Assembly: GCA_002763225.1 (NCBI GenBank)
Contig: PFAI01000036.1
Location: forward strand, 19,544-32,160
Length of the DNA: 12,617 bases
Reading direction: 5' to 3'
Source: Candidatus Diapherotrites archaeon CG10_big_fil_rev_8_21_14_0_10_31_34
Lineage (GTDB): Archaea; Iainarchaeota; Iainarchaeia; Iainarchaeales; 1-14-0-10-31-34
Shown here: piece after piece, positions 9,001-12,000 of the stretch
How the letters are laid out: each line of letters opens with the position of its first letter
Numbering within the stretch: position 1 is the first letter of the stretch
Made by a program: the position numbers

Positions 9001-12000
9001 AAAAAGAGGAAACAAATTAAAGAATATTTTAAAGAAAAGAAAAATGCTTGAATCAATTTCAGATAAAGACTTTGAAGTTTTAGTTAACTCTTTAAGCGGA
9101 GAAGATGTACTAAAATTAGCTGAAGGCGAATTAATTGAGTCAGCCAAAATTTTAACAAAAAAGCTGGTAAAAAACCCTAAACTTGCAATGCTGATGGTTA
9201 AGTATTTAAAATAAAAACCGAATATTTAAAAGAAAAATAAAAACTGGTTTAAGAATTATATAAATTTGTTATGCTGTCAGCTGAAATTTGTTGTGTATTG
9301 TAAATTTTTAATCCAATTAATTGTTCGTTTTTTTTCAGGAATTCAGCATTATAATTTCCTTTGCTTATTTCTTGGTATTCATTAAAATTTTTTAGCTGAA
9401 TTATTTTTTCGCCCATGGTTATTGAAGCAGTATTTGAACTAGTGTAATTTATCACTGCCTTTTCATGAAACCAATATGAATCAGCACTTTCGCCAATATT
9501 TAATGGTTGAGGTAAAATTAATTCATAAATAAATGCATATTGTGGAATTCCTCTTTTGTTTACTTCAACTGAAATTTTTTCTCCTGTTTTCAAAAAAGCA
9601 AGTTCATTTGAAGTTAAAACAAATTTTCCATTTCCTAATCCGCTGATATAATCTTTTAGTTCAACAGGGTAATTGACATGAATTTCCTTTACTGTAATAG
9701 CCTGTCCTGTAGCTTCATTTTCTTTTTGAGTGCAGCCGGCAAACAACAGAATTAAAGGAATTAAAATTATTAAAACTTTATTCATTTTTCCACCTCAACA
9801 AAATATGTTATGTATTAAACTATATCTTTTCGCCTTTTTATATTTATTGTTTTAACCTTTTTGCTGTTTCTTATATTATTTAAGGAGAAAAATTATGCAG
9901 TTGCTGAATTTAACTTTAAGCTACCTTTTACAGGAAACCAGTTCTTTAATTGAAAATTCTTTTATTAACAAACTGCAGGAACTGGATAATGATAAATTTA
10001 AGTTAAAGTTAAGAACAGCTAATGGAACAAAAAATCTTTTTCTTTTCCCTTTAGCAGTGTTTTTTTCTGAATACAAAATTGATGCAAAAAAACAGACATC
10101 AGGGTTTGGTGCATTTTTAAGAAAAAGGATTGAAGGAAAAAAAATTCTTGCAGTCTCTCAGCATAACTCAGACAGAATTATTCAGATGGAATTGCAGGAC
10201 TATTATTTAATCCTTGAATTATTTTTGAATGGAAATATTATTTTAACAGACAAGGAATTCAAAATAATTTCTGCTTTTAAAAAAGACGAAAACAAAAACA
10301 GAAAAATCTCTAAAGGAGAACTTTATTTGTTTCCTGAATCAGCCAAACTAAATCCAAAAGAAATGGGTTTTGAAAACTTCAAACAAAGTTTTGAAAAAGA
10401 TGACAAAGAAAATTCAGTTCTTTCAGTTATTTCTTGTTTAGAGATTGCACCAATTTTTGTTGAAGAAATATTTTTCAAGCTTAATCTAAAAAAAGAAAAA
10501 AAATTAACTGAAAAAGATTTAAAAAAAGTTTTTGATGAAATCAAAAAAATGTATTCATTAAAAGAAAAATCAAATCCAGTTAAGGTTCAAAAAGGAAAAG
10601 AATTTTTTATTATTCCTTTTCCTTTAACTTCAGTTAAAAAAACAGAAAAAATTAATTCAATTAACTCTGCTTTAGATGAATTTTATTCAAAAGAGTTTTT
10701 TTCTGAAAACCAGCCGGAAAAAAAATCAAAAAAACTAATTGGTTTAGAGTACAGCTTTGGACAGCAACTTGATGCAGAAAAAAAACTAAAAGAACAAATT
10801 GAATTAAACAAAATCAAGGCAGAAGCAATTTACTTAAATAATTTGTTGATTCAGGAAATAATTGACTCAGCAAAAAAAGGTTTATCTAAGGATTTAAAAG
10901 AAAAAGAAATAAAAGAAAAAATTAATGTTTACTTAAAAACAAATAATAAAGAAATAGAATTAATTTCTTTAACCAGAAACAAAGTATTACTTAACTTGAA
11001 AGAAAAATAAATTACTCGCTTTCGATTGCACTTAATTCTCTTTCATCGACGATAAACACATCGCTTACTGCTGTTACAGCAGAATAAGGAATGTTTATTA
11101 CTCTGTCTTTTGAACCGATTTTTTTGATTACTTTACTGTCTCTGTCAACTTCAACTAACAAGGTTTCAATGTCTCCTGTTACTTCATTTACAATTAAATC
11201 GGTTAGTTTTCCTACTTCGTCTCCTCTGTTTGTAATGACCCTTTTAGTGGCCAACTGTCTTGCTACAGTGTATTTATACATTTTAATCCATCCAAATTAT
11301 TTTGTTATAATCTATAAAGGCTTTACAAGTTTATAAATCTTTCTCTAAAACAAATTATACATAAATTTTTCTTTAAAAATCGCCGTCAAAATCCTGTTTT
11401 TGTTATTTTGGTTGTTTCTTGAAATTTCTTTAAATTATGGAAAATCAAAAAACAATTTGTTATGTATAATTGTGTTTTTTGGCTTATTTTATTTTGAATT
11501 TTGTTATTGCAAAGATAATTATGCCTATTATTAGTATTCCTGCCAGAATTATTGTTGTTGTGTTTGTTGGTGTTTCTGTTGTTGGGCAGTTGTCGTTTGG
11601 GGTATCAGTACAAGAACTCCAACTACTGTTGATGCATGTTTGTGTTCCTGGGCATGAATTTGTTTTGCAGTCTTTTGTTGTTCCTTCAATGCATGTTGTT
11701 GTTGGGTTGTATTCTTTTGTTGTTATTGTGTAACCGAGTTTTTCTGCTGTGATGTTTTGTGTTTGGTTTTGTTCTGTGAAGTCTACTATTCCTTGTGTGT
11801 TTGTGTATTTTGTTTGTGTTCCGTAAGTTACTTTTGCGTTTTCTATTTCTTTTCCTTGTAAGTCAGTTATTTTTACGACTAGTGATCCTTCTTTTTTGAA
11901 TATATATATTTCTAGTTTTTGTTCGGGGGTTGTTGTTTTGCAGTCTGCTGGGCAGTTTGTTATGTTTTCAAATTCTTGTTCGCATACTTCATTTCCGCAT

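Follow-up and report, generated by a model that had tools for sequence, protein, structure and literature searches.

The window analysed here, a 12,617-nucleotide stretch of contig PFAI01000036.1 from Candidatus Diapherotrites archaeon CG10_big_fil_rev_8_21_14_0_10_31_34, probably encodes one subunit, the N-terminal one, of an archaeal RqcH (Rqc2/NEMF) that is split in nature, the rest of which would be made by a distant second gene. Across whole phyla the two halves are kept together, are divided at one and the same turn, and retain the conserved residues of fused RqcH proteins.

The N-terminal half and the locus of its partner

The 371-aa ORF (Table 1) matched the archaeal RqcH profile NF041120 (RqcH_arch) at positions 5-377 of 645 (E 1.5e-49, 169.4 bits) and ended there at a stop codon, which confirmed the N-half described in the genome-wide survey's note. 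The ORF was also matched by PF05833, and the domain search displayed no NFACT-R domain in it. The NFACT-N and helix-hairpin-helix fold of NFACT/RqcH proteins was found by profile and domain searches as well as in an AlphaFold2 model (mean pLDDT 90), whose best Foldseek matches were NEMF (9gy4) and RqcH (8s1u/7aqc). The DR motif was kept, as the survey had reported, with D93-R94 aligned to the corresponding DR in NEMF and in streptococcal homologues of RqcH. In the model, the last strand of the protein may provide the edge on which strand one of the C-half docks.

Table 1. Features of the window in and around the rqcH N-half gene.
Feature	Position	Strand	Content or basis
rqcH N-half gene, 371 aa	9895..11010	+	NFACT-N, helix-hairpin-helix region, CC1, first two M-domain sheet strands
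D93-R94, counterpart of tRNA-binding DR motif (B. subtilis D97/R98)	10171..10176	+	alignment to NEMF, 5h3x/6pon
E108-L109-F110, counterpart of EIM loop (B. subtilis E121/I122/M123)	10216..10224	+	alignment with EIM of 5h3x/6pon
CC1, first antiparallel coiled-coil helix, residues 279-331	10729..10887	+	DSSP H279-314, H316-331
M-domain helix and two strands (353-358, 363-367)	10900..10995	+	AlphaFold2 model
Stop codon TAA at the split site	11008..11010	+	M-domain strand 2/3 beta-turn of fused proteins
PRC-barrel gene, convergent with the N-half	11012..11281	-	PF05239; starts 1 base past the N-half stop
Geranylgeranyl reductase, 778 aa, with intein and LAGLIDADG domain	6878..9214	+	Hint, Intein_splicing, LAGLIDADG_3
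Cys/Thr-rich repeated protein with C-terminal hydrophobic anchor	11484..12617	-	cut by contig end

No C-half follows the N-half directly, as the position of the PRC-barrel gene shows. This gene adjoins most N-halves of Iainarchaeota and of their sister phylum, and is a conserved neighbour of the N-half not known as part of the RqcH system. AMMECR1, a reported neighbour of archaeal NFACT genes (PMC4075521), was frequently near the N-half gene in the loci compared. Elsewhere in the window, the geranylgeranyl reductase carries an intein, and a copy from the same genus measures 400 aa (L032:3088-4290). The glyceraldehyde-3-phosphate dehydrogenase, phosphoglycerate kinase and leucyl-tRNA synthetase genes (937-3166 on the plus strand and 3774-6557 on the minus strand) are, we presume from their motifs, of bacterial type.

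The source bin is 81% complete (1.04 Mb in 65 contigs), and its C-half had been recorded as missing. This proved wrong: the first 21 C-half residues are encoded at the end of contig C28 (63-1, minus strand), where the frame runs off the contig. An in-frame TGA stands directly ahead of its ATG, and upstream lies the helix-turn-helix (HTH) gene found before the C-half in relatives. Contig C34 begins within the HD-like gene that follows the C-half in relatives and continues into cdc48, in agreement with the cluster order topA - HTH regulator - rqcH-C - HD-like - cdc48. Since C28 ends inside the C-half and C34 opens in the next gene, the C-half of this genome lies in an assembly gap and is not lost. 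Only tblastn and a custom profile detected its start, and a PF05670 search of the bin gave no match. In a same-genus genome the C-half covers positions 380-645 of NF041120 (334.3 bits) and comprises the last M-domain strand, the second coil, NFACT-R and the C-terminal domain. The second gene is separate, as the survey had stated, but is not NFACT-R alone.

The survey had given N-half frames of 369-411 aa for nine family genomes, a range that held in the six same-genus genomes (this one included) and in one further family genome (G050, 397 aa). The 190-kb separation of the halves was reproduced in G063 (C1:84346 and 274693), and they lie 36 kb (G002) and 162 kb (G030) apart in single-contig genomes. 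With an incomplete bin, 65 contigs and only 21 C-half codons, one could suspect an artefact of assembly or binning, or a pseudogene in decay. Such an origin is extremely improbable: the same N-half end recurs in 5/5 other genomes of the genus, and contigs from 4/4 sequencing runs extend beyond the end of C28 by 474 to about 2200 bases (extents only, with two of the runs possibly being the source of this DNA). It is refuted by complete genomes, in which the halves are 254 kb (chromosome CP010424) and 62 kb (Nanoarchaeum equitans, AE017199) apart.

Distribution and history of the split

The split into two unlinked genes was borne out and is far wider than the survey's note had stated. Full-length proteins were scored by the 400-bit cut-off of NF041120, which neither half reaches alone. 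Within the order, 150/151 genomes matched the profile and none (0/151) exceeded the cut-off, so that no single chain above 400 bits combined the coiled coil with NFACT-R. Two or more matches were obtained in 141/151 genomes, including 53/53 of those at least 90% complete; all RqcH domains are present in these genomes as two genes, the bin of this window holding only the first 21 C-half codons of the second. In the phylum Iainarchaeota, to which named relatives assign this organism, a set of 121 genomes was searched that overlaps the order set; 121/121 matched and 0/121 passed the cut-off, one with a weak match only. Both halves and no match over the cut-off were found in 24/24 genomes of a small sister phylum grouping with Iainarchaeota.

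Other phyla were sampled in sets each centred on one named locus, with kin that are not independent. The phylum of Woesearchaeota and Nanoarchaeota had both halves in 58/71 genomes, no match in 10, and one genome each with a fused gene, a C-half only and a short weak match. Its fused RqcH (L166, G268:C4:114531-116258, a 611-aa frame) sits on a long branch and its placement is unsure. Altiarchaeota matched in 31/31 genomes, 3 of them fused. In Aenigmarchaeota 43/61 matched, 30 over the cut-off, with one clear split (G194), and Nanohaloarchaeota were fused in 31/31. Halves only 1.3-1.9 kb apart were seen in three genomes (L169, L170 and L171, from G306, G344 and G326), in tandem in one and divergent in two. 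The comparison took in the DPANN phyla named above, with no genome verified as Micrarchaeota, Undinarchaeota or Huberarchaeota among them; a 350-aa NFACT_N cluster in the Atlas, with Microcaldota as commonest taxon, is a lead only.

Named loci from Bathyarchaeia, Thermococci, Hadarchaeota and Asgard archaea were fused, apart from two Bathyarchaeia records, one cut by a contig end and the other bearing TAG where the split genes are divided. This single in-frame stop (L085:2498-2500) may be an error, a readthrough codon or a fresh fission. Stand-alone C-halves labelled Methanosarcinales or Thaumarchaeota fell inside Woesearchaeota or Iainarchaeota clades (FastTree) and were not scored as splits outside DPANN; records so titled (L065, L092, L098, L102, L104, L309 and similar) are probably mislabelled. 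One N-half match with three internal stops (L210, G046:C2:6823-7947), a frameshift or assembly error, was excluded from the pair set.

Trees of the N-half and of the C-half both follow phyla. In both trees the split gene of G194 nested among the fused ones of Aenigmarchaeota (100/98 for the C-half), a sign that the same turn was cut there independently. A single clade of all split sequences was rejected (p-AU 0.0013), a result still compatible with one split and later re-fusions, and at least 7 changes between split and fused states were counted on the tree. Trees of the two halves disagreed on whether Altiarchaeota had re-fused or had never split: the 3 fused Altiarchaeota were nested among split sequences in the C-half trees and sister to them in the N-half trees (AU p 0.336 and 0.125). 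One DPANN-wide split followed by re-fusions and several independent splits are both possible; a single clean DPANN synapomorphy is too simple, given the clade rejection and the phyla of mixed state.

The split is a rare but labile character for DPANN phylogeny, present in Iainarchaeota, their sister phylum and most Altiarchaeota and Nanoarchaeota, with the fused form in Nanohaloarchaeota and most Aenigmarchaeota. For annotation, per-protein cut-offs call RqcH absent in the split phyla.

The cut site and reassembly of the halves

A fused Aenigmarchaeota protein was modelled (mean pLDDT 90), in which CC1 spans residues 258-329, three strands lie at 352-356, 361-366 and 369-374, and CC2 spans 379-420. 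The cut corresponds to the beta-turn that joins the last two of these strands, where the coiled coil has its far tip. The model of the window protein ends with the strands at 353-358 and 363-367, which leaves the third strand and the returning helix to the C-half. C-halves start at profile positions 380-383, with a Met in that column in 80/96 pairs.

Conservation was compared between 96 split pairs and 70 fused proteins, and the key columns were as conserved in the former as in the latter. Among the 96 split N-halves, position 93 was D in 60 and E in 33, and R94 (94), E108 (96), N114 (94), Q291 (94) and Y313 (89) were kept; I312 is, with Q291 and Y313, a conserved residue of CC1. The C-halves kept N14 (94), A15 (94), K28 (95), D102 (94), H106 (96) and S140 (94). 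The DR and EIM-type motifs and the DxxxH (DWH-type) motif of NFACT-R were all present, and hydrophobic alternation was kept in both strands at the cut. In B. subtilis RqcH, mutations of DR and EIM abolish tRNA binding and mutation of DWH abolishes 50S binding (bioRxiv 2020.09.03.281279). Counting against a two-piece RqcH, N-halves from two genomes of one family (L159 and L160, in G002 and G034) carry NK in place of DR, which suggests that tRNA selection has been changed or lost in them.

Charge covariation linked the two sides of the cut. K363 of the N-half and E4 of the C-half ranked first (z -5.7) among 21,828 inter-half pairs, and K363-D6 ranked fourth, in a charge-product test that used within-phylum shuffles (closer kinship remains, and alignment ends are noisy) and was chosen after K363-E4 had stood out in a mutual-information scan. 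Scores of -4 or lower occurred in 5 background pairs and scores of +4 or higher in 2. Charges at K363-E4 were opposite in 43 pairs, the same in 0 and neutral in 53 (n=96), with reversed pairs in several lineages. The signal held within Iainarchaeota, the sister phylum and Nanoarchaeota; in Altiarchaeota alone it was not significant (p 0.13). From the strand limits of the model, K363, E4 and D6 would lie on one face of the strands flanking the cut. That these strands covary in charge supports reassembly. Top matches of the mutual-information scan were mostly phylogenetic noise save K363-E4, its block statistic barely exceeded 25 shuffles and was given little weight, and split and fused mutual information in the interface block did not correlate (rho 0.02). 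A coiled-coil register test was null (170/500 shuffles as good) and was counted against the two-piece reading.

The two halves probably join into a non-covalent complex, in which the three-stranded M-domain sheet would be completed by the first C-half strand and CC1 would pair with the first C-half helix. An improbable alternative is that the halves have parted functionally, the N-half binding tRNA or RNA alone and the C-half acting as a solo NFACT-R protein like CCDC25/Jlp2 of eukaryotes. Solo NFACT-R proteins do exist (PMC4075521), and in three Aenigmarchaeota genomes the sole match covers profile positions 413/436-643 (G246:C9:35341-35967, G214:C5:10717-11343 and G232:C5:69426-70133, in 220-305-aa frames); these frames may possibly encode solo NFACT-R proteins without the coil. 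In the split pairs, however, the sheet and the coiled coil are each shared out between the two halves, which are jointly present or jointly absent across genomes, and their charges covary across the cut. CCDC25 moreover arose by duplication alongside a full-length gene, and here the 151 genomes searched of the order and the 121 of the phylum yielded no such gene.

Split RqcH is real and phylum-wide, and it probably functions as a heterodimer. By analogy with the B. subtilis structures, the heterodimer would quite probably bind split large subunits bearing peptidyl-tRNA, with NFACT-R and the coil tip gripping the ribosome and the N-half reading the anticodon through DR and E-x-F. It may then add an Ala-type tail that directs the stalled chain to degradation; this step, modelled on bacteria, is the weakest inference of the scheme and only slightly favoured. 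No test of tailing, or of any archaeal RqcH, was found in the literature searched, and tRNA-Ala(UGC) was not found in the bin, an absence that is uninformative at 81% completeness. In the Nanopusillus proteome an intensity value is given for Nps_03140 and none for Nps_00030 (PMC4935971); the detection of one half only was counted against a two-piece RqcH. The split parts the tRNA-reading portion from most of the ribosome-binding portion, and the halves offer ready tools to find out whether decoding depends on a covalent arm.

Linkage to cdc48 and relation to known systems

A cdc48 gene (TIGR01243 over cut-off) was present in 30/30 of the best-scoring Iainarchaeota C-half loci, its start lying 53-759 bases downstream on the same strand in 25, upstream and divergent in 3, and unmatched in 2. 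It was also found in 7/11 sister-phylum C-half loci. At L012:3069-3836 the cdc48 beside the C-half seems, by eye, to bear an intein start after the Walker A region. This linkage could indicate a two-step factor, in which a ribosome-anchored C-half is co-expressed with Cdc48, the N-half joins transiently to decode tRNA, and a regulatory split ties archaeal ribosome quality control (RQC) to Cdc48 and the proteasome. In favour, B. subtilis RqcH contacts the ribosome through NFACT-R and the distal CC-M only, its N domains making no 50S contact and being sometimes disordered (bioRxiv 2020.09.03.281279), and Cdc48 belongs to eukaryotic RQC (PMC6514570). The idea is nevertheless unlikely: cdc48 was absent from 21 Nanoarchaeota and 11 Altiarchaeota C-half loci (with short flanks in some) and from 47 fused rqcH loci, one ancestral event suffices, gene order is sticky in this clade (the PRC-barrel gene next to the N-half shows similar conservation), and a 763-aa gene is inserted ahead of cdc48 in this genome. 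The linkage is accordingly taken as a lead resting on one ancestral arrangement. A broader and similarly doubtful conjecture is that the anchoring half of a DPANN two-subunit RqcH, co-expressed with Cdc48, would hand over stalled chains to it. Such a system would be a ubiquitin-free archaeal precursor of the link between Rqc2 and Cdc48 in eukaryotes, its decoding half being exchangeable and its M-domain turn a hinge repeatedly cut and re-joined as DPANN evolved.

The preferred reading remains a two-piece RqcH, and the survey's statement that no such form had been described did not stand. Under an older name, the split was published by 2013 at the latest, and the present work widens a known oddity. 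Podar 2013 (PMC3655853, Table 1 and supplement) lists a split 'predicted RNA-binding protein' (NEQ438-506 in N. equitans, Nst176-251 in Nst1) cut at the same site. Nst1_176 and Nst1_251 are both assigned to arCOG01695, equated there with COG01293, and COG1293 is the RqcH family; split genes of this family are also tabulated for Nanopusillus (Nps_00030/03140, PMC4935971 supplement). In AE017199 the halves were located at 387195-388130 (profile 2-351, 352-aa frame) and 449837-450571 (381-644, 261-aa frame), and were equated with NEQ438/506 on the basis of family and genome rather than locus tag. The C-half start at 381, against 380 in the present genus, places both cuts at the same site.

The Nanoarchaeota split is thus like the one described here in family, in its two unlinked genes and in its site, and differs in that the pages cited do not recognise it as RqcH. 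A literature search with the names NEQ438/NEQ506 and archaeal Rqc2/RqcH found nothing. A word search of the main text of PMC4075521 gave no 'split', 'RqcH' did not occur in the main text of two 2026 bioRxiv papers on DPANN, and the portions covered of PMC6514570, PMC6349945 and PMC9540759 name no split gene RqcH. In the mainly open-access literature, as far as these portions go, no source named the split gene RqcH or extended it to Iainarchaeota or Altiarchaeota. The RqcH identity, the breadth of the split and the C-half/Cdc48 linkage were not found in print; the lability of the split and first covariation evidence for reassembly are further additions, and the distribution corrects the published view of the split as peculiar to Nanoarchaeota.

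Archaeal RqcH (NF041120), B. subtilis RqcH, yeast Rqc2 and human NEMF share their domain order, N-half fold and the DR, E-x-F and DxxxH motifs with the split protein, whose two halves jointly cover NF041120 (5-377 and 380-645). In contrast to these, two polypeptides are found here, each below 400 bits, and tailing is putative. CCDC25/Jlp2 solo NFACT-R proteins and ThiI+NFACT-R fusions (PMC4075521) likewise carry NFACT-R outside a full-length NFACT protein; the present C-half differs in having retained the second coil and the C-terminal domain, and in standing in for a full-length gene instead of duplicating it. Other split genes of DPANN archaea (reverse gyrase, AlaRS and Dph2; PMC3655853, PMC6349945) also have non-contiguous halves thought to assemble post-translation, but they concern different proteins and, for most, narrower ranges.
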